This document shows positions 3-14,443 of a stretch of DNA of 64,000 nt, piece after piece. Every line of letters begins with the position of its first letter. Position 1 is the first letter of the stretch. Location: assembly GCA_951812955.1 (NCBI GenBank), contig OX638340.1:1920001-1984000 (forward strand), in the 5' to 3' direction. The translations under genes were made by a program, and so were the position numbers. A model generated the notes under the pieces. It searched no databases, had not been told where the DNA came from, and was given only the letters and a program-made list of their open reading frames with translations. Source of the DNA: an uncultured Gemmatimonadota bacterium. GTDB lineage: Bacteria > JAAXHH01.

Positions 3-680
3 TTGCACTGCGGCGGCCTGATGGTCCGATTCGCCGACCTGGGATACGTCACCGGTATTGTCGATATGAGCCTGGGAGAGAAAGGCACCCGCGGCACGGT
101 CGACGACCGGAGACTGGAAGCGGCGGCAGCGGCGAAGGTGCTCGGGCTGTCCGAAAGGCTGAATCTCGAACTGCCGGATTCCCGCATCGGGGCCTGCGAG
201 TCGCACCGCGACGCCCTCGTCGACGCCATACGCCGGTTCCAACCGGACTTGCTTCTCGTTCCCCACGAAGTCGCCCGTCATCCGGATCACGGGGCGACCG
301 CCCGCCTGGCCAGGGACGCGGCCTTCCTGGCGGGCCTGGAGAAAATCGAAACGGACCACCCGGCCTTCCGGCCCCGGCAACTGGTCTTCTACCTCACGCA
401 CCACCGCTATCAAGAACCCAGGCCTTCCTTCATCGTCGACATATCCTCCTCCTTCAACCGGAAGATCGAAGCCGTGAAGGCCCACCGGTCGCAGTTCCAT
501 GACCCGGACTCCGGCGAGCCGGAAACCTACATCAGCCGTCCGGAGTTCCTCGATGAGGTTGAGGCCCAGAGCCGTTACTACGGCACGCTGATCGGCGCGC
601 GGTACGGGGAGCCCTTCGTAGTGCGGGAATACCTTTCGATCGACGATCCCCTGGCCCACTTCACGGGGCGCGCGGGATAG
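3..680 (+). CDS. bshB1: LmbE/PIG-L family N-acetylglucosaminyl deacetylase, bacillithiol biosynthesis deacetylase BshB1-like (5' end outside window)
   Basis: Translation matches LmbE-type deacetylases (HPDHxxx motif region, 'AHRSQF'); immediately upstream of a bshA homolog. Confidence 0.75.
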   Translation: MHCGGLMVRFADLGYVTGIVDMSLGEKGTRGTVDDRRLEAAAAAKVLGLSERLNLELPDSRIGACESHRDALVDAIRRFQPDLLLVPHEVARHPDHGATARLARDAAFLAGLEKIETDHPAFRPRQLVFYLTHHRYQEPRPSFIVDISSSFNRKIEAVKAHRSQFHDPDSGEPETYISRPEFLDEVEAQSRYYGTLIGARYGEPFVVREYLSIDDPLAHFTGRAG

Positions 681-2390: not shown

Positions 2391-4388
2391 TTACCATGTT
2401 TCCACGATGTGGCCCGAATTCGGAAACCAGATTACATCGACGCAGTAGGAAAGCGCCACGCCCAGCACGTAACCCACCAACATGCCGATGAAGAAGGGCT
2501 GCGTCTCCCGGTACAATCTCGTGCCCCCCAGTTTAAGGATAATGGCCTTAACGAGCCAGACCAGGAAGATCGACGTGGCGATCATACCGATTCCCCAGGT
2601 CTTGGCAACAGCCCAGCCGATGGGATGCAGCGGCCACCAGTGGAAATTGTGGTGGGCCAGGATCAGCAGCCAGGCTATGAAGGCGCCGACCCCCAGGCCC
2701 AGGTACTCCCCGCCGGTCAACTGGGTCTGGTTATTGATCCATGTCGTCAGCGTGTTGTAACCCGCCTTCGCGTTTCCGAATGCGTCCCTGAACCCATCCG
2801 CGCCCGTGGTTTCGTAACCCAGGAAGACAGTATATACTACGGAAATGATGGCGGCCATGACCAGCGCCGAGACGATGACGGGGAAGATGCCGCGCCGGGC
2901 GCCGCCAATCTCGTCGCCCATCTTGTTTACGTGGGCCATGGCGCACATGCCCAGCGTACGCCAGTTCCGTGAGAATGTCTGCGACAGGGTCAGGATGGTG
3001 AGATCCGCGCGGTGCAGGTTCGCCGATCCGAAGGAGAACACCGTAAAGTCATGGGCGTTATATGGCAGGTCGAGATTAATCAGGCCCGCTTCCGCGACCA
3101 CGCGGGTGACCCCAAGAAAGAGGAGCATGCAGGTGGCCAGCAGCGTGGCCGCGGCGGCGAAGGACATGCCCATGCTGATCAGGAAGAAGAACATGTACGT
3201 GATGCCGAGTACCACGCCGCACATGGCGGTCCTGTAGGAGAAAAACTCCCCCGAATCGTCGATGTCGTTTCCCCTTCCGATGGCCTTACGCACCACGTCG
3301 TAGAGGTGGCGCCGGGCCATCCAGAGCCCGAACAGGGTGAACATGAAAAACCCGCCCAGGTGCTGGGCCGTGACGATCTCGGTCGTCTTCGGAATGCCGA
3401 ATCGACTCATGATGCCGATCTGGATCGTGGCCAGCAGGAAGAACACCCAGATGCTGAACAGGATGTTGAGATTCGTAAAGAATCCGATGCCGATGAAGGC
3501 GAAATTGATCTTGAACTGGATCGGCGGGAAGGATTCGGCCAGGGTGATCGGTATGCGGTAATCCCCGCCCAGTCTGATGGGCACCACAGCGTCCCAGTAC
3601 GAGACGATGTTCCAGAGAATGATGAAGAGGGGGATGGAGAATCCGTACCAGAAAACCCTGGACCGGGCGATCCGGGGCAGTACGGAGCCGCTTTGGTCAT
3701 CTTCGATGAGCAACAGGGGCACGCGGGCCAGCGGAAAGGTCAGACGTTCCCGCTCGATCCACTGTTTACGCAGGATCACCATGAGCGACGCGCTGGCGAA
3801 GAAAAGGGCCAGAAAGAAGGTGCCCCACCAACTCATGGGGATGATCCAGTCCCGCCAGGGAATGACGCCGGTGGAGGGCAGCCCCTCGTAGAACCAGTGC
3901 ACCGCCCGCCGTTCATCCGGGATGATGAGCCAGGTCGGGAGATACTCGAAAAACAATTCGACATACCTGTTCTCGGAGTTGGCATAGTAGTGCGGAATGG
4001 ATGGAACGGCGACCCAGTAGGTCGTAAATGCCCATCCGGGAATAGCCGAGGCCGTAAACACGATGAAAAAGATTATCATCAGTTCAGGAGCTGTGAATAT
4101 TCGAGTCGGTGCGAATCGCTTCAACAGGCCGTTTACGACGAAGACGACCAGCATGAAGGGGAAGAGCGCCGCCATGGGCATGTGGGTAATGGACAGGTAG
4201 GATGAATGAGCCTCGAAGGCGGAATGCACGACCCACCACGCCATGGCCGCGGACAGGAAGAGTCCCAGACCCACGGCACGAAGGGTCATGCCCGAAGCAA
4301 GCCCACCGGTTCTGCCGGGAGGACCTACATCGGGAGGATAGGAATCCGGCCTGCCTGCAGACGGGGGAGTCCGCTCTTTAACACTCAT
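2391..4388 (-). CDS. large polytopic inner-membrane protein of unknown function (>=12 predicted TM helices)
   Basis: 665-aa ORF with many hydrophobic segments and aromatic-rich loops; no recognisable catalytic motif; coding strand chosen over the antisense ORF 3012..4205. Confidence 0.55.
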   Translation of the reverse strand: MSVKERTPPSAGRPDSYPPDVGPPGRTGGLASGMTLRAVGLGLFLSAAMAWWVVHSAFEAHSSYLSITHMPMAALFPFMLVVFVVNGLLKRFAPTRIFTAPELMIIFFIVFTASAIPGWAFTTYWVAVPSIPHYYANSENRYVELFFEYLPTWLIIPDERRAVHWFYEGLPSTGVIPWRDWIIPMSWWGTFFLALFFASASLMVILRKQWIERERLTFPLARVPLLLIEDDQSGSVLPRIARSRVFWYGFSIPLFIILWNIVSYWDAVVPIRLGGDYRIPITLAESFPPIQFKINFAFIGIGFFTNLNILFSIWVFFLLATIQIGIMSRFGIPKTTEIVTAQHLGGFFMFTLFGLWMARRHLYDVVRKAIGRGNDIDDSGEFFSYRTAMCGVVLGITYMFFFLISMGMSFAAAATLLATCMLLFLGVTRVVAEAGLINLDLPYNAHDFTVFSFGSANLHRADLTILTLSQTFSRNWRTLGMCAMAHVNKMGDEIGGARRGIFPVIVSALVMAAIISVVYTVFLGYETTGADGFRDAFGNAKAGYNTLTTWINNQTQLTGGEYLGLGVGAFIAWLLILAHHNFHWWPLHPIGWAVAKTWGIGMIATSIFLVWLVKAIILKLGGTRLYRETQPFFIGMLVGYVLGVALSYCVDVIWFPNSGHIVETW

Positions 4389-5702: not shown

Positions 5703-6497
5703 ATGACGCTGGAACAGCAGATTCAGGCCATGCAGCTCGATGGCTGGTGCGTGCTGGACAACATCATTCCCGGGGACCGGCTTGACGAGGTACGCGGCCG
5801 GGTCATCGCTTCGACGAACCGGCACCGGAATCCCGACGCACCCGAAAACATCGGCCACGTGAGCGGTTTCCTGAAATACGACCAGTCGCTGGCGCCCTGG
5901 CTCGCGGACCGGCGGCTCCTCTGCCTGGTCGAGGCGCTGCTCGGACACCATTTCCGCATCTCCTTCACCACGGCCACCATCAACGAGCCGGGGAACGACC
6001 GCGGTGGATGGCACGCGGACTGGCCCTTCAACCAGCGGAACGCCGGCTATGTGCCCGCGCCGTACCCGGACGCGGTCATGCACCTGACGACCATCTGGAT
6101 GCTTTCTTCCTTCACCGGCGATAACGGCGGCACCCTCATCGTCCCGGGCAGTCATCGAGACTCCAACAACCCGACCGGAAATAACGGGGTTCTGCCCGAA
6201 GCACCCCATTCGACCGAGTTGAACGTGACCGGCGAGGCCGGAAGCGTCCTCGTCATGGACAGCCGTTTGTGGCATTCGACTGCCGCGAACACCTCGAAGG
6301 ATCCCCGCGTCGCCGTTGTCGTCCGCTACGCGCCCTGGTGGCTGAACCTGAACGTGCTGAAACCCGGCTCGGAAGACCGCAGGATCCTGGTAGACGAGAC
6401 CGGCGGAACGGAGAACCTGGTTCCCGCCCTTCCCCGCGACGTGTATGACGGACTACCCGGCGAATTGAAGCCCCTCGTAAGTCACTGGGTGGAGTAG
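5703..6497 (+). CDS. phytanoyl-CoA dioxygenase (PhyH) family Fe(II)/2-oxoglutarate dioxygenase
   Basis: HxD...H facial triad context ('WHADWP', 'RLWHST'), typical PhyH length. Confidence 0.7.
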   Translation: MTLEQQIQAMQLDGWCVLDNIIPGDRLDEVRGRVIASTNRHRNPDAPENIGHVSGFLKYDQSLAPWLADRRLLCLVEALLGHHFRISFTTATINEPGNDRGGWHADWPFNQRNAGYVPAPYPDAVMHLTTIWMLSSFTGDNGGTLIVPGSHRDSNNPTGNNGVLPEAPHSTELNVTGEAGSVLVMDSRLWHSTAANTSKDPRVAVVVRYAPWWLNLNVLKPGSEDRRILVDETGGTENLVPALPRDVYDGLPGELKPLVSHWVE

Positions 6498-6745
6498 GCG
6501 GCATTCCTTATACATTAAAATCCTCTGATCTATTTCTGTGGCATGTTCAAGGTTGCATTCCGTCTTCGTAACGGTGTTGACCTGAACCAGATCCGTTAAG
6601 GTCGAGTATACCTGCCTGGAAGATTCCAAGGTCCTGGAATCACACTACGTGGAACCAGGAAACATTTCTTCCGTCGCCACGGTCCAATGTGTTGGTTATT
6701 TGTCGATAACTTTTCCGATTCTGAATACTGCGATTGGAGGAGGTT

Positions 6746-8314
6746 ATGAGCCGGACTGGATTTGTCACGATTTTATGTGCGTGTTTAGGGCTTTCAAGCG
6801 CGTGCAGCATGCAGGAGTTCGGATTCGAGCGAGACGAACGAGAGATCGAATTTGAGCACGACGGGCAAGACTATATCGATAGCACCAGGCAGAAATACGA
6901 GGTGAACTCCGGTGGGACACTGACGGTCGATGCCAAATTTGGGGCAATTCGCATCAGAAGCTCGATCAATGATGAAGTAGATGTCCTGGTGAGAAAGCGA
7001 TTTCGGGCAACCGATGCTGACCAGGTTCGAAAAGCCTTCAGTAATATCGAAGTCGTAATCGAACAGACGTACAACGGGGTACGAATCGAAGTCGATCAGA
7101 TCAGGTACCCCACGTACACGAAATGGTTCTGGCAGGAAGACTGGCCGGATCGGGTCTATGTCGAAATCAATGTTATAGTGCCTGAGGAATACAACCTCGA
7201 CCTCATTACCATAAGCGGTGATATCCAGACGGGGAATATCGCAGGAAATGTGACGGCTGAGACTCTTACCGGGGAAATTTCGACCGGTCCCACCGAAGGT
7301 GACTTGAGCATAAAATCGAACAGCGGGAATATAGAAACCAGCCGCGTGGTAGGCAGGTTGCACACCACTACACTGACAGGTAACATCAAGATCGGCCCAG
7401 TGGATGGTGATGCCACGGTCGATTCAAACTCTGGTAGAATAGAAACAGGTACCGTAGAGGAGGATCTGCAAGCCAAGACCCTAACAGGTAACATCAAGAT
7501 CGGCCCAGTGGATGGTGAGGCCACGGTCGGTTCGAACTCTGGCAGTATAGAAACAGGTACCGTAGTGGGGAATCTGCACGCCAAGACCCTAACAGGTAAC
7601 ATCGAAACCGGCCCAGTGTTTGGTGATGCGACGGTCTCTTCGAACTCTGGCAGAATAGAAACAGGTGCCGTAGCGATGGATCTGCACGCCAAGACCCTAA
7701 CAGGTAACATCGAAACCGGCCCCGTGGATGGTGATGCGACCGTCTCTTCGGCGACTGGCAGAATAAAAACAGGTACCGTAGAGGGGGATCTGCACGCTAG
7801 GACCTCAACAGGTAAAATCGAGATCGGTCCTGTGGATGGTGATGCAAACGTCAGTACGACATCTGGTATGGTCGAGGCCTCAAACGTGTTAGGGGTTTTC
7901 GAAACCAGATCCCTGAGCGGAGATATCAGACTAGGCCCCACAAGTGGCGACATTGTTGCTAGTTCAACCAGTGGTGATATCGAGGGGGAATTGATCGTAA
8001 CCGATCCATCCGTCGAGGCCAGGTACGACATGCAGACTCTGAGCGGAGATATAACCATTCAAATGCCAGTTGACATCCCGTCTGTTATTGATGCGCAGAT
8101 CACTATCGGGGAGATCATTGATCCGTGGTTGCCAAATTGGTGGCATGTCCAAAGGCGAATTAAATCCGATTTCGACCTGAACTTTAGTAGAATAGAATCT
8201 AGCCCAGGGAACTATGCAATTAAAGCTATCGGTGAAACGAATGGCGGTGGAAACAGAATCAAGCTGGTATCTACCGCTGGTAACATACGTATCCGAAGTA
8301 AAGACGATGAGTAG
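6746..8314 (+). CDS. DUF4097-like repeat protein / putative adhesin-type beta-solenoid lipoprotein (paralog 1 of 3)
   Basis: GGAGGAGG RBS before ATG; signal peptide with lipobox-like 'LGLSSAC'; long run of 18/36-aa 'TLTGNIxxGPxxGDxxVxSxSGxIET' repeats. Confidence 0.7.
   Translation: MSRTGFVTILCACLGLSSACSMQEFGFERDEREIEFEHDGQDYIDSTRQKYEVNSGGTLTVDAKFGAIRIRSSINDEVDVLVRKRFRATDADQVRKAFSNIEVVIEQTYNGVRIEVDQIRYPTYTKWFWQEDWPDRVYVEINVIVPEEYNLDLITISGDIQTGNIAGNVTAETLTGEISTGPTEGDLSIKSNSGNIETSRVVGRLHTTTLTGNIKIGPVDGDATVDSNSGRIETGTVEEDLQAKTLTGNIKIGPVDGEATVGSNSGSIETGTVVGNLHAKTLTGNIETGPVFGDATVSSNSGRIETGAVAMDLHAKTLTGNIETGPVDGDATVSSATGRIKTGTVEGDLHARTSTGKIEIGPVDGDANVSTTSGMVEASNVLGVFETRSLSGDIRLGPTSGDIVASSTSGDIEGELIVTDPSVEARYDMQTLSGDITIQMPVDIPSVIDAQITIGEIIDPWLPNWWHVQRRIKSDFDLNFSRIESSPGNYAIKAIGETNGGGNRIKLVSTAGNIRIRSKDDE
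7373..7912 (+). repeat. intragenic tandem array, 5 x 108-bp units (36-aa protein repeats), first four highly similar at nucleotide level
   Basis: Units begin at 7373, 7481, 7589, 7697, 7805 (ctaacaggtaacatc...); directly visible in sequence. Confidence 0.75.
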
Positions 8315-8406
8315 TAGAGCGAAGACACAACCATTGAATCCCTACGGAAGTCTCAATGACAACTCCGGTAGATGTCTTTACTACACAACCGTGGGAGTGG
8401 AATAGT

Positions 8407-9171
8407 ATGAAGACGATATGGATCACAGCGATTACGTGTATAGGTATTTATCCGGTTCTTGATTCCGGCGCGCAGACCACAGAGGTCATTCAAGTTGGGC
8501 AAGGATACGCGGCAACCATTGAAGAAACATTTACTGTGGAACCGGGCGGCGAACTGACCATCGATGCCGACTTCGGATCCGTCCGGATCGAGACTTCGAC
8601 GAGCAACACCGTGGAGGTTCTTGTGGAAAAGCGCCTGAAAGAGGGCACCGAAGACCAGGCACGCCGAGCCTTCGAAGAAGTGGAGGTAACAACAGAACAG
8701 CGGGGCAACGACGTACACATCGACGTTGACAATTCGCGATGGTTCAAGCGCGCCAGGGTTTCCGTAGCTATGACCGTGCAGGTGCCTTATACATACAGTC
8801 TGGATATCAAGACGGCAGGAGGCGGCATCGAAATCGGGAACCTGGACGGCGAGATCACGGCGAAGACTGCAGGCGGAAGCATCAGGACAGGAACCACGAA
8901 AGGGGACGTGACCGCCAAGACCCTGGGCGGAAGCATCCGTATCGGCCCGACTGAGGGAGGCGTGTCTGCCAAGACGATGGGCGGAAATATCGCTATAGGG
9001 GATACGAATGGGGACGTGTCGGCCCACACGCTGGGTGGAAGCATCCGCATCGGCATTGCGGACGGGGATGTACTTGCCAGGACGATGGGCGGAAACATCA
9101 CCGTTGAAGAAGCCTCGGGTAAAGTGTCTGCCAAGACCCTGGGCGGAAAAGTCCGGGTCGGTTCCACGTAA
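8407..9171 (+). CDS. DUF4097-like repeat protein (paralog 2), secreted
   Basis: Signal peptide 'MKTIWITAITCIGIYPVLDSGAQ'; 20-aa 'KTxGGxIxIGxxxGDVxA' repeats; start moved to 8407 (RBS GGGAGTGG) rather than track start 8356. Confidence 0.65.
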   Translation: MKTIWITAITCIGIYPVLDSGAQTTEVIQVGQGYAATIEETFTVEPGGELTIDADFGSVRIETSTSNTVEVLVEKRLKEGTEDQARRAFEEVEVTTEQRGNDVHIDVDNSRWFKRARVSVAMTVQVPYTYSLDIKTAGGGIEIGNLDGEITAKTAGGSIRTGTTKGDVTAKTLGGSIRIGPTEGGVSAKTMGGNIAIGDTNGDVSAHTLGGSIRIGIADGDVLARTMGGNITVEEASGKVSAKTLGGKVRVGST

Positions 9172-9219
9172 CATATCTCTGGCGAAGACAACACCGCCTG
9201 TTTAGACATAAAGGGAGGG

Positions 9220-10506
9220 ATGATGCGTTTGTTATTGGTCGTGGTCAGTGTCAGTCTGCTCGTTGCCTCGGCATATGCATGCAGCGCACAGGAGGTCACG
9301 TTTATGCGCGACGATATGAGTCACGTAGAAAGAACCCACCAGAAATACATGGTGGATGGAACCGGCACGTTGACCGTAGACGCCGACTTCGGTTCGATTC
9401 GGATCGAGAGCTGGCCGAACGATGAAGTGGACGTCGAGGTAGAAAAACGCCGGACTGGAGTCAGCGAAGACAGCGCACGCGACGACTTCAACGACGTTGC
9501 CGTGGATATCTCACAACGGGAGAACGACGTCGACATCCAGATCGACCGGAAAAGCCGTTTCGGGTCGGAGAGGGTATCAGTGGATATACAGGTCCGGGTG
9601 CCGGAATCGTATAGCCTGGACCTCAAGACCTCGGGCGGGGATATCGATATCGGAGACCTGCGGGGCGACGTTTCCGCCCGCACCTCGGGAGGCGACGTCA
9701 ACGTCGGCACAGTGACGGAAGCGCTGCTCCGCGTTCACACGTCAGGAGGCGATGTGACCGTGAAAGGGGGCGGACGGGAAACGAAGGTATCCACCTCCGG
9801 CGGGGATATTGAGATCCGGGACGCCCGGGGCACAGTGGATGCGACCACCTCGGGCGGTGATATCACGATCGGCGGCACGGCCGGCGAAGTGACGGTGAGA
9901 ACATCGGGCGGCGATATCGAAATAGATCGGGCTGCGGGAAACACAGAGGCGACTACCTCGGGCGGCGACATAACGATAGGCCATACCACAGGGGACGTGA
10001 AGGCGAAGACCTCCGGCGGCGATATCACGATCGAGCGCGCAAACGGTGAGGTGGACGTTCATACTTCGGGTGGCGATGTGACCATCGACAGCGCTGAAGG
10101 AACCCTGAGGGCGGGCACTTCGGGTGGTGATATATCGATCAGCAATGCGCCGGGTGCCGGCTTAACGGCGAAAACCTCGGGTGGCGATATCGAAGCCCGT
10201 TTGAGCCCGACAGCAAGTGCATTGGAAGAAGAATGGATACTGAAGTCGTCCGGTGGGGAACTGACCATCCGCATTCCCGAGGATCTGTCCGCTACAGTCG
10301 AGGCGGAGATCCATCATGAGCGTTCCTGGTTCGGAAGCGACCGGGGGGATTATCAAATCGACTCGGATTTCGACCTGGACGAAGAGGTAGATGACGGTCG
10401 GGACCGAAGGACGATCCGGGCCACCGGCGATATCAACGGGGGCGGCAATCGCATCCGGCTCGAAACCAGCGGCGGCGATATTCGGATTCGTAAGGTGACT
10501 TCCTGA
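9220..10506 (+). CDS. DUF4097-like repeat protein (paralog 3), secreted
   Basis: Signal peptide 'MMRLLLVVVSVSLLVASAYACSAQ'; about 13 x 20-aa 'TSGGDIxIxxxxGxVxAx' repeats; RBS AAGGGAGGG. Confidence 0.7.
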   Translation: MMRLLLVVVSVSLLVASAYACSAQEVTFMRDDMSHVERTHQKYMVDGTGTLTVDADFGSIRIESWPNDEVDVEVEKRRTGVSEDSARDDFNDVAVDISQRENDVDIQIDRKSRFGSERVSVDIQVRVPESYSLDLKTSGGDIDIGDLRGDVSARTSGGDVNVGTVTEALLRVHTSGGDVTVKGGGRETKVSTSGGDIEIRDARGTVDATTSGGDITIGGTAGEVTVRTSGGDIEIDRAAGNTEATTSGGDITIGHTTGDVKAKTSGGDITIERANGEVDVHTSGGDVTIDSAEGTLRAGTSGGDISISNAPGAGLTAKTSGGDIEARLSPTASALEEEWILKSSGGELTIRIPEDLSATVEAEIHHERSWFGSDRGDYQIDSDFDLDEEVDDGRDRRTIRATGDINGGGNRIRLETSGGDIRIRKVTS

Positions 10507-10532
10507 GCCCGTGCCGGACGCGGTTTTGCGGA

Positions 10533-11491
10533 TCAGGCCGCGCCCAGATACCCAGCGAGTTGAGCGGGCATGATGTTCCCGCCGCTGAGCAGAACCACGA
10601 CTTTCTTGCCTTCCAGCGAAACGATGCCGTTCAACAACGCTGCTACGCCCACGGCGCCGCCCGGTTCAACCACGAGCTTGGTTGCCCCGATGAGGTACTT
10701 CACCGCGTCGATCGCCTGCGCGTCGGAAACCAGGACCATTTCATCCACGTAGGCCATTACGTGTTCGAAGGTAAGGTTGCCGGGGCGCGGCGCCACGAGC
10801 GAGTCGCACACCGTGTTCGGTTCCTGTACCTCGCAGATCTCTTTCTTCAGAAAAGATTGATAAACCGCTTGTGACCCTTCGGGTTGCACCCCGATCACTT
10901 TCACCGCGGGGTTCAGCGTCTTCACGGCCGTGGCGACACCGCCGATAAGGCCGCCGCTACTCACGGGCACGATGACCGCGTCCAGATCCTGTGCCTGCGC
11001 CATGATCTCGGCGCCGATGCTGCCGTGACCCCGAACGACGTTTTCGTCCTCCCACGTGTTGATCGCGGTGATTCCCCGTTCTCTGCCCAGCCGGCCCAGC
11101 GTGTCCCACCGGGCCTGGTTGTGGTTCTCGCACAGAACCGCTTCGCCCCCGTAGTCCCTGGTGCGCCGGATCTTGTACGGCGAGGTTTTCTCCATCATCA
11201 CTATGGCGGTTGGTATCTCGAGCAAAGTTCCCATGAAGGCGAAGGCCGTGGCGAAGTTGCCGGAGGACGAAATGGCGGCGCCTTTTTCCTTCTGAACATC
11301 TGATAGGCGGTTCAGGATGGTAAATGCTGCTCGCGTCTTATACGATCCGGTCACCTGCAGGTTCTCCGCCTTGAACCAGACGTCCGCGCCCGATAGATCG
11401 GAGACCGATGGAGACCGGAGGAGGGGCGTGTATACGATCTCCGGTGGTAGTTCCCGCCGTGCCTGTTCGATTTCTACCAACGTGACCATCA
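10533..11491 (-). CDS. threonine/serine dehydratase (PLP-dependent, fold type II)
   Basis: 'FKAENLQVTGSYKTRAA' PLP-lysine motif, 'SSGNFA', glycine-rich 'VSSGGLIGGVA'; true start set at MMVTLV (GGAGG RBS) rather than the 444-aa track ORF. Confidence 0.75.
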
Positions 11492-11633
11492 TGATACCTC
11501 CGGTTCGCTCAACGTCCCGGGTTGTGTCCGTGTCCGGTGGCCCACGGCAGACAGTTCGACCGACTGTTCCGCTTCCGGACAATCTGTTCAGCCAACTTGC
11601 GGAGTCAAGCGATTTTAACCTGTAACAAGGCAC

Positions 11634-11693
11634 AGGACATCCGGCGCAACAGCTCAGGACATCCGGCGCAAAGGTGCGGGACATCCGACGCAA
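11634..11693. promoter_or_regulatory. three direct repeats GGACATCCGGCGCAA spaced 22 bp (plus a fourth GGACATCC at 11725), upstream of the 11879 gene
   Basis: Repeats at 11634-11649, 11656-11671, 11678-11693; two-helical-turn spacing typical of response-regulator binding sites. Confidence 0.4.
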
Positions 11694-11878
11694 GGCAGCC
11701 AAAGAAAACACGGAAAGGTCTGTCTGGACATCCCGGTCATGAACGCCTATATTGCGCCCTTCGTTGTCACCTGGCGCTTCAGTTGAAGAAACAGGGGCAC
11801 TGAATTGTAGAATATAAGATCGAACGTTGCTGTCTGTATCTGGGGAACCAAACTCGTTGTTCGACACTGGAGGATTGA

Positions 11879-14443
11879 ATGTTATTTCGCCTGACCGCCC
11901 GAATATCCGGCGGCCTGCTATGTGCTTTTGCCGGTCTCCAATTGAATCATGCCATTGCGTCAGCTCAATCTACAGACGATCAGGCTACGCTGAACAAAGG
12001 CATAGCGGAAACCGTGGCGGCGATATCGGAAGAAACCGAACGGACCTCTGACCCGCGGCCTTTCAGCGTTCCCCTTCCCGTATCCAAAACACTCTTCGAC
12101 TACGGAAATCTAGATTCCGACGACTACATACTTTCGGCCAAGCGGGCTGTTTCGACTATCGAGGTGGACGGACACCTGGATGAAGCCGAATGGCAACAGG
12201 CTGAAGTCGCCGGCGATTTCTTCCAGCTTGAACCCGTCGAAGGCGCCCCGGCAACCTTCCCCACCGAAGTCAGAGTGCTGTACGACGACAATAATCTGTA
12301 CGTGGGATTCGTCTGTTTCGACCCCAATCCGGAGAACATCATGGCCCCGGACATGCAACGGGACACCCGGATGAGTTTCTCCAACGACATGGTTACGGTC
12401 GTTATCGCATCCCTCGACCACTACCGCGAAGCCTTCGAATTCCAGACCAATCCCAACGGCGCCCGGTCCGATTCCTTCGTCAGCGCTGAAGGTAACAACT
12501 CGGACCGTGACTGGAACGGATTGTGGAATGCGGCCAGCCAGGTGTACGATTACGGTTGGTCGGCCGAATACGTGATCCCCTTCCACACGCTGCGGTTTCC
12601 CAAGCGCCAGAACCAGACCTGGGGCATAAACTTCGGACGCCGAATCCAGCGCAGCAGGGAGGAATCCTACTGGGTTCCCCTGAGCCTGAAGGACGGCGAC
12701 CAGGCGCTGTTTCGATTCGGCAAGGGCGGCCGACTGACGGCCCTGTTCGATATCACGCCGGGCGGACGGGTCCAGGCGACCCCGTTTACCGTACTTGGCG
12801 CCCAGTCCTCACGGATTACCGAATCCGCCCCGACACCCGCTCGCCCGATCGCCGCGACGGACCTCGACAATGGTATGCAGCGGAGTTTGGGCGGCGACCT
12901 TAAGGTCAGTGTCACATCGGGTCTTACGTTAAATGCGACCGTCAATCCCGATTTCGCCCAGGTGGAAGCGGACGACGAGGTCGTGAACCTTTCCCGCTTC
13001 GAATTCCAGTTTACCGAAAAGCGCCCCTTCTTCCTGGAGCGCAGCGATATCTTCACCTTGAACCAGCGGCCGCAACGACGCGGACCGCAACGTGGCGGCG
13101 GCGACCTGACGCCCCAGCTGTTCTTCAGCCGGCGCGTCGGACGACAGTTGCCGGACGGTCAGTCCGTCCCCATCGACCTCGGCATGCGCCTGACGGGAAA
13201 AATCGGGCATACGACCATCGGGTTCCTGAACGTTCAAACCCGGGAGACCCAGTACGACGACGACGGGGAACAGAAGATGGAACCGCTGACCAACTGGCAA
13301 GCCCTGCGTGTAATACGGGACTTCGGGTCACGGTCGAGCGTCGGCATGATGGCTACCTTCAAGGAACCGAATCCCCGATTCGATGACCGGGTCGGGATGG
13401 CCATACCCCGTTACGCCGAGACCGACTATAACCGCGTGATGGGATTCGACCTGAACCTGGCCTCGCGGGGGACGAATCACCGGGGGCAGATTACTTTCGC
13501 CAAAAGCTGGACCGATACGCTGAGCACCAGCAACCAGGACTGGACTTTTCGGATTATCGAGCGGTGGCAGAACCGGTGGCTTATGTACGGGATTTCCTAC
13601 CTCGACATCGGCGAGGATTTCATCGCCCAGTCCGGCCTGGTCAGAGACGAAGGCCTGCAGCGGGTAGGGGGCGGCATGACGGCCAATACCTTTCTCCGCC
13701 GGTTTGGCATTCGGCGGATCAACGGGGGGTTCAGGAGCAATTATGTGACCCGCAAGAACACGGGTTTCTCCGATGCCGATTCCTGGTCATTCCAGCCCAA
13801 TGTATTCCTGGAACTGGAACGGGGAATGTGGATCTCCGCGTCATATAACATGAATTTCGATACACTCAGCGAAACGACGCGCATAGCCGGCGTTCATTTC
13901 ACCGAAGGATCCTATTCCTTCAACCAGGGCAGTCTCTTCCTCTTTACCGACAGTGGCCGGAAGATCTCCTATCAAGGCAGCGTCCGGTACGGCAGGTTCT
14001 ACGGCGCCGACCTCCTCAGCCTGTCGAGTGAACTGTCCATCAAGCCGAATCCCCGTTTCGCGCTGGAACCTGGCATTACCCGCAGCCGGGTCGACCGGGG
14101 CAATCGCCTGGGTCTGGAGGACGACGAATACGATCATCGTACGCAACTCATACCCAGTGTCCGAATGAGTTACGCCTTCACGCCGAATCTGTCGTTCTCC
14201 TCCTTCGTCCAGTTGAACGCGGATCGGCAGCGGGAGATCGACGATTACCACATGAATACGGTAACGATGAACCTCCTCCTCGCCTACCGGTCGCCCTTCG
14301 GTCACTCGTTCTTCCTGGCTTTCAACCAGTTCCGCGATGACGACCTCGATACCGACGGTACCTTCGGCGTCTACGAACGAACGCCCCTGCGCCTGAGGGA
14401 CCAGCAGATCGTCGCCAAGGTGTCATACCTGCTGAACCTGTAG
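11879..14443 (+). CDS. CBM9-like/DUF5916 family outer-membrane-associated protein (putative carbohydrate-binding N-domain plus C-terminal beta-barrel)
   Basis: Signal peptide; 'IEVDGHLDEAEWQQAEV..DFFQLEPVEG...VRVLYDDNNLYVGFVCFD' resembles CBM family 9/DOMON-like modules; long beta-rich C-terminus. Confidence 0.55.
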   Translation: MLFRLTARISGGLLCAFAGLQLNHAIASAQSTDDQATLNKGIAETVAAISEETERTSDPRPFSVPLPVSKTLFDYGNLDSDDYILSAKRAVSTIEVDGHLDEAEWQQAEVAGDFFQLEPVEGAPATFPTEVRVLYDDNNLYVGFVCFDPNPENIMAPDMQRDTRMSFSNDMVTVVIASLDHYREAFEFQTNPNGARSDSFVSAEGNNSDRDWNGLWNAASQVYDYGWSAEYVIPFHTLRFPKRQNQTWGINFGRRIQRSREESYWVPLSLKDGDQALFRFGKGGRLTALFDITPGGRVQATPFTVLGAQSSRITESAPTPARPIAATDLDNGMQRSLGGDLKVSVTSGLTLNATVNPDFAQVEADDEVVNLSRFEFQFTEKRPFFLERSDIFTLNQRPQRRGPQRGGGDLTPQLFFSRRVGRQLPDGQSVPIDLGMRLTGKIGHTTIGFLNVQTRETQYDDDGEQKMEPLTNWQALRVIRDFGSRSSVGMMATFKEPNPRFDDRVGMAIPRYAETDYNRVMGFDLNLASRGTNHRGQITFAKSWTDTLSTSNQDWTFRIIERWQNRWLMYGISYLDIGEDFIAQSGLVRDEGLQRVGGGMTANTFLRRFGIRRINGGFRSNYVTRKNTGFSDADSWSFQPNVFLELERGMWISASYNMNFDTLSETTRIAGVHFTEGSYSFNQGSLFLFTDSGRKISYQGSVRYGRFYGADLLSLSSELSIKPNPRFALEPGITRSRVDRGNRLGLEDDEYDHRTQLIPSVRMSYAFTPNLSFSSFVQLNADRQREIDDYHMNTVTMNLLLAYRSPFGHSFFLAFNQFRDDDLDTDGTFGVYERTPLRLRDQQIVAKVSYLLNL

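Follow-up and report, generated by a model that had tools for sequence, protein, structure and literature searches.

A Toastrack (DUF4097) gene array in uncultured Gemmatimonadota whose beta-solenoid proteins differ in length by whole rungs between relatives

Introduction

Toastrack domains (PF13349, along with DUF2154 and DUF2807) comprise an N-terminal cap followed by beta-helical rungs, and they have been proposed to be docking platforms (Ravi et al., mSystems 2024, PMC11237479). Most members are viewed as intracellular, sub-membrane platforms; their genes recurrently adjoin signaling genes, and in some genomes several Toastrack genes lie side by side (PMC11237479). The family is very large, and tests of its role have been confined to a few stress systems from Firmicutes. 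Here we describe a Toastrack gene array in a 64,000-nucleotide stretch of DNA from an uncultured Gemmatimonadota bacterium (GenBank assembly GCA_951812955.1, contig OX638340.1, positions 1,920,001 to 1,984,000). We will call this stretch the window and number positions from its first nucleotide. The array has three genes, which we will call g1, g2, and g3. They encode probable envelope proteins that are built from stacked 18-residue rungs, and both the length of the proteins and the number of genes vary between close relatives.

Where they have been studied, Toastrack domains work by contacting other proteins through their broad sheets. Among the proteins with the DUF4097 beta-strand domain are LiaG from B. 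subtilis and LiaX from Enterococcus, which belong with the LiaFSR envelope-stress system. LiaX is exposed on the cell surface, and its C-terminal beta-strand domain inhibits LiaFSR, a membrane sensor, by protein-protein contact (PMC6936494). A second point of comparison is the Periscope proteins. These are surface stalks of variable length (such as SasG, Rib, Sgo_0707, and CdrA) and are defined by variation in repeat number that is driven by high DNA identity (PMC8201768).

Three paralogs with the Toastrack fold

The three genes lie head to tail on the + strand at 6746–8314 (g1), 8407–9171 (g2), and 9220–10506 (g3), and encode proteins of 522, 254, and 428 amino acids. A preliminary description of the window, made from the sequence alone, had proposed that these are consecutive paralogs that are made of short repeat units and belong to DUF4097, and most of this holds. 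BLASTP aligns g1 to g3 from end to end (E = 3e-59), g2 to g3 at 42% identity (1e-51), and g2 to g1 at 38% identity (6e-46). The repeat unit is a rung of 18 amino acids (54 bp). g1 and g3 exceed the gathering cutoff of PF13349, which is 22.9 bits (39.5 bits, E = 5.5e-10, and 85 bits, E = 6.8e-24, respectively). g2 has no match in Pfam even at E ≤ 1; we place it in the family because of its paralogy to g3 and g1 and its weak match to the LiaG model of NCBIfam (2.4e-5).

g3 is the canonical member, with a signal peptide, an N-terminal cap, about 11 rungs with the TSGGDI motif, and a C-terminal module. In an AlphaFold model of g3 that was built with 80 homologs (mean predicted local distance difference test [pLDDT] 91, predicted template-modeling score 0.85), the N-terminal domain contains strands and helix and the rungs end in a C-terminal cap. 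We compared this model to the PDB with Foldseek. The first 21 matches were all of the Toastrack type, with E values from 4e-5 to 2e-2, and the next match had E > 0.3. These best matches are the solved Toastracks 4QRK, 4OPW, 3LJY, 3PET, 3LYC, 3JX8, and 4YGU, and 7MUC, the DUF2807 protein of the Legionella Dot/Icm complex. The definition of Toastrack rests on 4QRK and 4OPW (PMC11237479). Like those two structures, our model is a single-stranded beta-helix of stacked rungs with a strand-rich N-terminal region, so the fold is predicted to be the same. Sequence searches of the PDB, with g3 alone or with a profile of 80 sequences, gave nothing meaningful and detected no solved chain.

For g1, the AlphaFold model (14 orthologs) has pLDDT > 95 for residues ~170–400, with strands every 18 residues. 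The N-terminal region of g1 is poorly modeled (pLDDT < 50 for residues 76–140), although the corresponding region of g3 is modeled with confidence. g2 has a hydrophobic signal or anchor at its N terminus, the N-terminal domain that it shares with g1 and g3, and about 7 rungs. It lacks the C-terminal module and ends inside a rung, without a cap. Because this uncapped end (…TLGGKVR[VI]GST) is conserved in every lineage (the g2 orthologs of loci L001–L019), g2 is a gene that has been maintained rather than a fragment. g1, g2, and g3 are all acidic proteins, with isoelectric points of 4.5–5.0.

More than 7,000 homologs of g3 were found. g1 has 7,491 relatives among 1.84 billion cluster representatives, and its own subfamily is narrow: just 3 of these representatives have E < 1e-100 and 27 have E ≤ 1e-30. 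Exact-sequence look-ups of the g1 and g3 products of the window returned no record. A metagenome scan with g1-specific peptides found no match, and a second scan that used alignment patterns contributed just two further close relatives.

Predicted export

The calls of export and lipidation that follow are from sequence patterns only (a PROSITE-style regular expression for the lipobox). g1-type proteins have a short basic start, a hydrophobic stretch, and then [SGY][SGA]-A-C. The lipobox pattern is present in 32 of 34 g1-type proteins, and the two misses are artefacts of the K/R and start-site filters. In the window, the signal peptide with its lipobox (…LGLSSA-C20) is encoded at 6746–6805, and Ala19-Cys20 does not vary across 14 aligned orthologs. 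Most likely, g1 is a lipoprotein. The N terminus of g3 (…ASAYA-C) matches the lipobox in the window; in some orthologs the cysteine is replaced by serine, and in others it is preceded by glutamate or aspartate, so cleavage by signal peptidase I after AYA is equally plausible. g2 has a hydrophobic N terminus ending in …VLDSGA-Q and no lipobox. The preliminary label of "secreted/lipoprotein" thus suits g1, is ambiguous for g3, and for g2 fails as to the lipoprotein. From the lipobox of g1 and the signal-peptide-like N termini of g2 and g3, all three proteins should be in the cell envelope.

A 108-bp repeat encodes a double rung of g1

After the signal peptide, g1 has an N-terminal Toastrack cap region (about residues 45–149, 6878–7192), which can be aligned to the N-terminal portions of both g3 and g2. 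Next is a region of about 15 rungs of 18 amino acids (7193–8005), as seen by splitting the sequence into 18-mers and in the 18-residue period of the DSSP strand pattern. Last is a C-terminal module (…DPWLPNWW…NGGGNRIKL…IRIRS, 8006–8311) that is shared with g3 and is conserved in all full-length orthologs. The 18-mers of g1 alternate between two types, TLTGNIxxGPVxGDATVx and SNSGxIETGxVxxDLHAK. Because of this alternation, the smallest unit of g1 that could be duplicated without breaking the stack or its register would be a double rung of 36 amino acids, or 108 bp. Direct repeats have a spacing of 108 bp in g1 and 54 bp in g2 and g3.

The preliminary description had reported a tandem array of five 108-bp units in g1, with four of them nearly identical in nucleotides. 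The array is there: Tandem Repeats Finder (TRF) reports a period of 108 bp at 7376–7845, with 4.4 copies, 87% matches, and a score of 660, which is far beyond chance. (g2 has a weaker 108-bp signal, with 1.9 copies at 8896–9099.) Five units can be recognized from TRF and a pairwise matrix, but "nearly identical" is too strong. When cut in frame, the four tandem units at 7370–7801 are 81–90% identical to each other in nucleotides and 69–81% identical in amino acids. A fifth, older unit (7802–7909) is only 59–65% identical to these four in nucleotides, and is orthologous to units from loci L003 and L013 (L003_400 and L013_316) at 68–71%. g1's other rungs have no recognizable likeness to the units at the DNA level.

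Nor is the expansion "very young," as had been proposed. Synonymous divergence (dS) among the four younger units is 0.07–0.44. The closest relatives of the window are metagenome-assembled genomes of Gemmatimonadota, and one of their loci, L001 (on a 2.47-Mb contig), is ~95–97% identical to the window in nucleotides across 18 kb and has the same three genes. Its g1 protein also has 522 amino acids and is 95% identical, and all five units of the window have positional orthologs there, in the same order and at 97–99% identity. Because each unit has its ortholog in L001, the five-unit array predates the split between the window and L001. It is younger than the separation from the lineages of L003 and L013: for the flanking genes, dS is 0.06–0.19 between the window and L001 and 0.4–0.7 between the window and L003 or L013.

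The nonsynonymous to synonymous ratio (dN/dS) for pairs of the four younger units is 0.4–2.5, on only 36 codons. The residues that vary among these units are interspersed with conserved G, I, V, L, T, and A positions. We take that pattern to mean that the conserved residues probably face the core of the solenoid and the variable ones are probably exposed.

We considered two other sources of variation and rejected both. A diversity-generating retroelement would leave an adenine bias, which we do not see: the majority base is A at 10 of the 29 variable sites of the four units, as compared to 31 of 108 sites overall. Phase variation by an invertible promoter is not indicated either, as there are only two 16-nt inverted repeats, which is the chance level. 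There are also no calcium-binding turns of the GGxGxD type, rich in glycine and aspartate, as in RTX or MpAFP-type beta-solenoids.

Lengths differ between relatives by whole rungs

The expectation that this locus is prone to length variation was borne out. The g1 orthologs of close relatives have 522, 486, or 450 amino acids; the gaps are of exactly 36 residues and lie inside the rung region, and both ends are conserved. These alleles are 77–95% identical to the window protein, and part of the loss of identity at the low end comes from the missing unit. Four contigs, which represent two alleles, gave the 486-aa form in independent assemblies. L006 (486 aa) and L008 (450 aa) have no mismatches across the entire gene and differ by one 108-bp in-frame indel. 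In L002 (486 aa, on a syntenic scaffold of 65 kb), 40 of the 59 mismatches to the window lie at gene positions 510–762, at the start of the rung region, and no flanking similarity is missing in the window. This clustering is a mosaic pattern, as is typical of recombination or conversion.

The rates of g1 are also uneven. Between the window and L001, dS of g1 is 0.03, which is below the range for the flanking genes. Between the window and L002, dS is 0 in the C-terminal part of g1 and 0.12 in the rung region. These low and uneven values suggest that recombinant, mosaic alleles of g1 circulate within the species.

More distant relatives have arrays of their own. L003 (on a 1.15-Mb contig) has a g1 ortholog of 568 amino acids in which a 108-bp period is repeated in 4.1 copies with 95% match, an independent and younger expansion, and the g1 array of L017 has 2.2 copies at 95% (both from TRF). 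Within L003, the central units are 91–97% identical, except that its first unit, which has a 3-nt insertion, is at 81–84%. Between the window and L003, the central units are just 58–81% identical (70–81% without the first unit of L003). L013 has just two central units, which are 74% identical to each other. In contrast, the flanking rungs that have not expanded are positional orthologs across the window, L003, and L013, at 74–84%. Because the central units are alike within lineages and less so between them, while the flanking rungs remain positional orthologs, the same cassette has been amplified, or homogenized, lineage by lineage.

The other proteins vary as well. g3 orthologs have 390, 408, 411, 426, or 444 amino acids, with gaps of 18, 36, or 54 residues that are confined to the rungs; two further, shorter g3-type proteins have 91-aa gaps. 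Two fused proteins (P0026 and P0027) have 615 and 651 amino acids and so are 36 residues apart.

We propose that unequal homologous recombination or gene conversion between adjacent 108-bp units adds or removes double rungs of g1, and that g3 changes by single rungs of 18 amino acids. We favor this mechanism because the indels are exact and in frame, because alleles are mosaic, and because the units are homogeneous within lineages. Of the two mechanisms that had been suggested earlier, recombination is thus supported (by the mosaic between the window and L002), and slipped-strand mispairing is unlikely because the units are long (108 bp) and divergent (81–90% identity).

Turnover of Toastrack genes between PhyH and PALP

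The array lies between genes for a PhyH dioxygenase and a PALP enzyme, and we compared this site across 16 distinct related loci. The flanks are conserved (86–98% amino-acid identity for PhyH and PALP, and 78–97% for the next gene, DUF5916), and the content between them varies. There are three Toastrack genes in the window, L001–L003, L013, and L019; four in L004/L015, L014, L017, and L041; at least four in L016; and five in L005 and L040. In L018 we detected three genes (a 655-aa fusion, g2, and g3), with an unexamined gap of 650 bp. Some g1 forms are truncated, with 282–330 amino acids, and end within the rungs. In fusions of 615–655 amino acids, a g1-like N-terminal half is joined to a g3-like protein. 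It appears that the site as a whole, which is fixed between PhyH and PALP, gains, loses, truncates, and fuses paralogs.

Fission and fusion can be followed at L004:8001–9853, L005:8001–9848, and L018:6989–8956. In some genomes the gene for the g1-like N-terminal half (326–330 aa, stopping after …YHTR) and the start of the next Toastrack gene share 4 nt. Elsewhere it is fused in frame to the next gene, to give 615–655 aa, and the lipoprotein signal of the second protein is lost.

The Toastrack genes evolve faster at the protein level than their neighbors do. Over interspecies distances, dN/dS is 0.27–0.46 for g1, g2, and g3 and 0.09–0.14 for PhyH, PALP, and DUF5916. For g1 of the window and L001, dN/dS is 0.6–0.9.

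The surroundings of PhyH vary in other ways. In L003, the spacer between the epimerase and PhyH genes has a tandem repeat of 43–45 bp (6795–6931, 3.1 copies, 95–97% match) and the 3' end of PhyH has a 49-bp repeat (7710–7808, 2 copies, 98%); both are absent from the window. L008 is identical to L006 for 2,012 bp and then has 69 extra bases (L008:2013–2087). An 80-aa open reading frame (ORF) is called there where L006 has a PhyH gene of 263 aa, and a PhyH-like ORF of 286 aa still spans the site. Inactivation of PhyH and an assembly error are both possible.

Base composition, gene starts, and neighboring genes

The three genes differ in GC content, as had been noticed, at 50.5% for g1 (rather than the "about 48%" that had been given), 56.9% for g2, and 59.4% for g3. 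GC content at third codon positions (GC3) is 0.54, 0.64, and 0.68, as compared to 0.74–0.83 for flanking genes. We considered whether g1 owes its low GC to a recent horizontal transfer and rejected this: the g1 orthologs of every lineage have GC3 of 0.51–0.65 and share one syntenic site. Low GC3 is thus an old property of g1.

g1 more likely starts at the ATG at 6746 than at a TTG at 6734 (6734–8314, which would give 526 amino acids), because a Shine-Dalgarno-like sequence (GGAGGAGG, 6736–6743, + strand) is directly 5' of the ATG and because orthologs also begin with MSRTG. The longest ORF for g2 is 8356–9171 (271 aa). The ATG at 8407 (254 aa) is the more likely start because GGGAG lies 9 nt upstream and because relatives' calls are at 254–257 aa. 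The three genes are probably an operon, as the spacers are of 92 bp (g1 to g2) and 48 bp (g2 to g3) and a terminator scan predicted no + strand terminator-like site within the array. A scan of the array for promoters and terminators found nothing above the shuffled expectation, and an Rfam search of 6000–12000 had no match at E ≤ 1. Two antisense ORFs, at 7156–8058 (300 aa) and 8353–9174 (273 aa) on the minus strand, were rejected as genes; they lack stops only because of the periodicity of the repeats, and have GC3 of 0.54–0.56.

Upstream of the array are genes for an NAD-dependent epimerase and the PhyH dioxygenase. Downstream are the convergent gene for the PALP enzyme and then genes for a CBM9/DUF5916 protein and an outer membrane protein (OMP) beta-barrel. 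The PALP gene is at 10533–11492 on the minus strand (319 aa, Pfam PALP at 1.8e-74, of the threonine dehydratase/serine racemase type), and the call is the same in all relatives. A mechanical call of 444 aa (10533–11867, minus strand) is over-extended, and the shorter gene leaves a divergent spacer of 386 bp before the DUF5916 gene at 11879. Farther upstream (window 3–680 and 724–1845), by synteny with L001:1532–5069, is a set of genes for bacillithiol biosynthesis (BshC-like, the PIG-L deacetylase BshB, and the GT4 glycosyltransferase BshA), followed by a rhodanese and then a 665-aa DUF6785/DUF6784 protein (2391–4388, minus strand).

The proposed role of the rods

Each of these proteins would be a rod, with an N-terminal cap and a stack of 18-residue rungs, which is closed by the C-terminal capping module in g1 and g3 and left as an open rung in g2. 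The rise per rung of a beta-solenoid is the standard cross-beta spacing of 4.8 Å. At this spacing, each 36-aa unit would be ~1 nm of rod, and the ~15 rungs of g1 would be ~7 nm. We propose that the rods are scaffolds or spacers for protein-protein interactions in the cell envelope, that they can diversify freely in length and in the faces that they expose, and that their length changes by unequal recombination; we would give this proposal a probability of roughly 60%. If a rod is exported and lipid-anchored and can tolerate changes in its length, number, and surface residues, then it behaves like an envelope scaffold or spacer rather than an enzyme. Changes in length by whole rungs, too, would be expected if the protein is a modular scaffold or spacer, but not if it is an enzyme.

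Several observations weigh against this proposal. We saw no partner protein, ligand, or regulator in the neighborhood of the array. The lipidation pattern is uneven, given the lost cysteine in some g3 orthologs and the lack of a lipobox in g2. An extracytoplasmic role departs from the published view of Toastracks as intracellular, sub-membrane platforms (PMC11237479), though LiaX is surface exposed (PMC6936494). At longer distances dN/dS is below 1, so relaxed constraint would explain the ratios just as well as diversifying selection would. Also, at least some of the differences in copy number within the species (486 and 450 aa) derive from short-read contigs. L006 and L008 are short and have low coverage (2.7x in L006), so that a unit might have been lost during assembly.

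This last point could be taken further: perhaps assembly artefacts account for all of the differences in length, and the array encodes an ordinary repeat protein that is static, with its copy number no longer changing. L006 and L008 do differ by only one exact unit, and a de Bruijn assembler could be misled by the identical stretches of ~30 nt that the units have in common; such an error may account for the single 450-aa allele. But the 486-aa form was assembled more than once, as described above, and lineages differ in structure on contigs such as ptg000768l (2.47 Mb), ctg61287_23.25x_c (3.97 Mb), ctg522382l, and contig_1 (1.15 Mb), whose long-read origin we infer from their names. Furthermore, every indel is in frame and an exact multiple of the rung, and the identity matrix of the units indicates lineage-specific expansion, beyond what the collapse of repeats could produce. 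We therefore consider a general artefact to be very improbable. A second alternative is that the proteins are accessories to an envelope-stress response like LiaG or LiaX, which would hold a membrane sensor or an anti-sigma factor that is encoded elsewhere and release it when the envelope is perturbed. All three proteins have weak matches to LiaG in NCBIfam (60.5, 23.7, and 70.4 bits for g1, g2, and g3) and g3 matches LiaX as well (36.2 bits), and the inhibition of LiaFSR by LiaX and the recurrent signaling neighbors of Toastracks (PMC11237479) would fit. So would two distant g3-type homologs in Ignavibacteriaceae and KSB1, whose genes are directly behind those for an extracytoplasmic function (ECF) sigma factor and its anti-sigma factor; we regard this linkage as a genuine lead. 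However, those scores are far under the equivalog cutoffs of 285 bits (NF049997, LiaG) and 350 bits (NF038025, LiaX). Neither the window nor any of the syntenic loci has a gene for a sigma or anti-sigma factor, PspA, PspC, LiaI-LiaF-TM, or a two-component system adjoining the array; the neighbors are always the epimerase, PhyH, PALP, DUF5916, and OMP beta-barrel genes. tblastn searches with the sigma factor and with the HEAT-repeat proteins were empty in the 64-kb window and in 22 other related loci. And if a regulator were held by a fixed partner, then free variation in its gene number and rod length would be unexpected. We consider a signaling role to be unlikely.

The variation might also recall a surface adhesin, or a Periscope-like stalk, that attaches the cell to a sponge matrix or to particles, with repeat number tuning its reach or helping it to evade recognition. 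The changes in repeat number between relatives, the raised dN/dS, and the lipoprotein signal of g1 are consistent with an adhesin, as is the sample of one relative, SB0665_bin_8, which also yielded Poribacteria that are sponge symbionts. (Judging from that sample, and not from the window itself, a sponge association is likely for this lineage.) But the ends of these proteins are ordinary family caps and there is no distinct adhesive tip, one unit is only ~1 nm of a rod of just ~7 nm, and the repeats stack as rungs within a single continuous fold instead of being independently folding domains. The units are 81–90% identical and not near-identical, and there is no autotransporter, two-partner secretion system, or other partner for surface export nearby. 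The words "putative adhesin" on related PDB entries are merely the depositors' label, and matches to beta-helices are generic for the fold. This makes an adhesive stalk quite improbable.

We can also speculate about the site itself. It could be a contingency-type hotspot, in a clade of Gemmatimonadota that are probably associated with sponges, that changes the repertoire of envelope beta-solenoids under diversifying selection by hosts, phages, or neighboring cells. The repertoire would include capped forms, uncapped forms, and fusions, with rungs added or removed as cassettes of 18 or 36 aa to give different rod lengths. The conserved, uncapped g2 might stack end to end with its capped paralogs to form hetero-oligomeric rods. 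We consider this whole idea to be quite doubtful.

Comparison with known systems

The array proteins resemble Toastracks in their Pfam matches (g1 and g3), in the fold of the g3 model, and in having an N-terminal cap followed by beta-helical rungs. They differ from the solved Toastracks in having no sequence-level match to them, even with a profile, and in being longer rods, with ~11–15 rungs as compared to crystal structures of ~210–250 residues. Whereas most Toastracks are predicted to be intracellular, these proteins have signal or lipoprotein N termini, and unlike the Toastracks that are linked to the phage-shock-protein (PSP) or Lia systems, they have no PSP or Lia partner genes near the array. 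They share the DUF4097 beta-strand domain with LiaG and LiaX, but the alpha-helical N-terminal sensing domain of LiaX is absent, there is no liaFSR, liaYZ, or PspC nearby, and they are from another phylum, with diderm cells.

In Ignavibacteriaceae and KSB1 (L009:5460–8125, L010, and L011/L012:5433–8311), the ECF sigma, anti-sigma, and Toastrack genes form a conserved three-gene unit, in that order. Its anti-sigma factor has an HxxxCxxC motif, a transmembrane segment, and HEAT repeats, and the unit may be an undescribed arrangement of an ECF sigma factor and its partner. Its third gene is a full-length homolog of g3 (33–35% identity, >90% coverage) with the same TSGGDI rungs and caps. In contrast, the Gemmatimonadota loci are without the sigma and anti-sigma genes, and the Toastrack gene has been multiplied into an array.

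Like the Periscope proteins, g1 is a cell-envelope protein (as predicted) whose gene contains tandem DNA repeats, the repeat number differs between relatives (522, 486, and 450 aa, where some contigs are short-read assemblies), and intragenic recombination is the proposed mechanism. But Periscope repeats are long, highly identical, and fold independently, in a stalk that bears a functional tip. g1's repeats are double rungs of 36 amino acids (108 bp) at 81–90% identity, and reach 91–97% only in the lineage of L003; they form one continuous solenoid that has just the family caps and no tip domain.

For the Toastrack family, this locus adds that members can be exported (as predicted here), multiplied into arrays, and changed in length by whole rungs between close relatives. 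It thus points to extracytoplasmic Toastrack biology. For work on symbiotic Gemmatimonadota, the site could serve cheaply as a marker at the strain level and is a candidate locus for interactions. What is known about the evolution of repeat proteins is not altered: the locus is an ordinary example of it and not a new kind of system, and it will not surprise a specialist. The family, its fold, and change in repeat number by intragenic recombination were already known. Specific to this locus are the narrow subfamily of g1, the double-rung cassette as the unit of change, and a fixed site for the turnover of paralogous Toastracks that are predicted to be exported.

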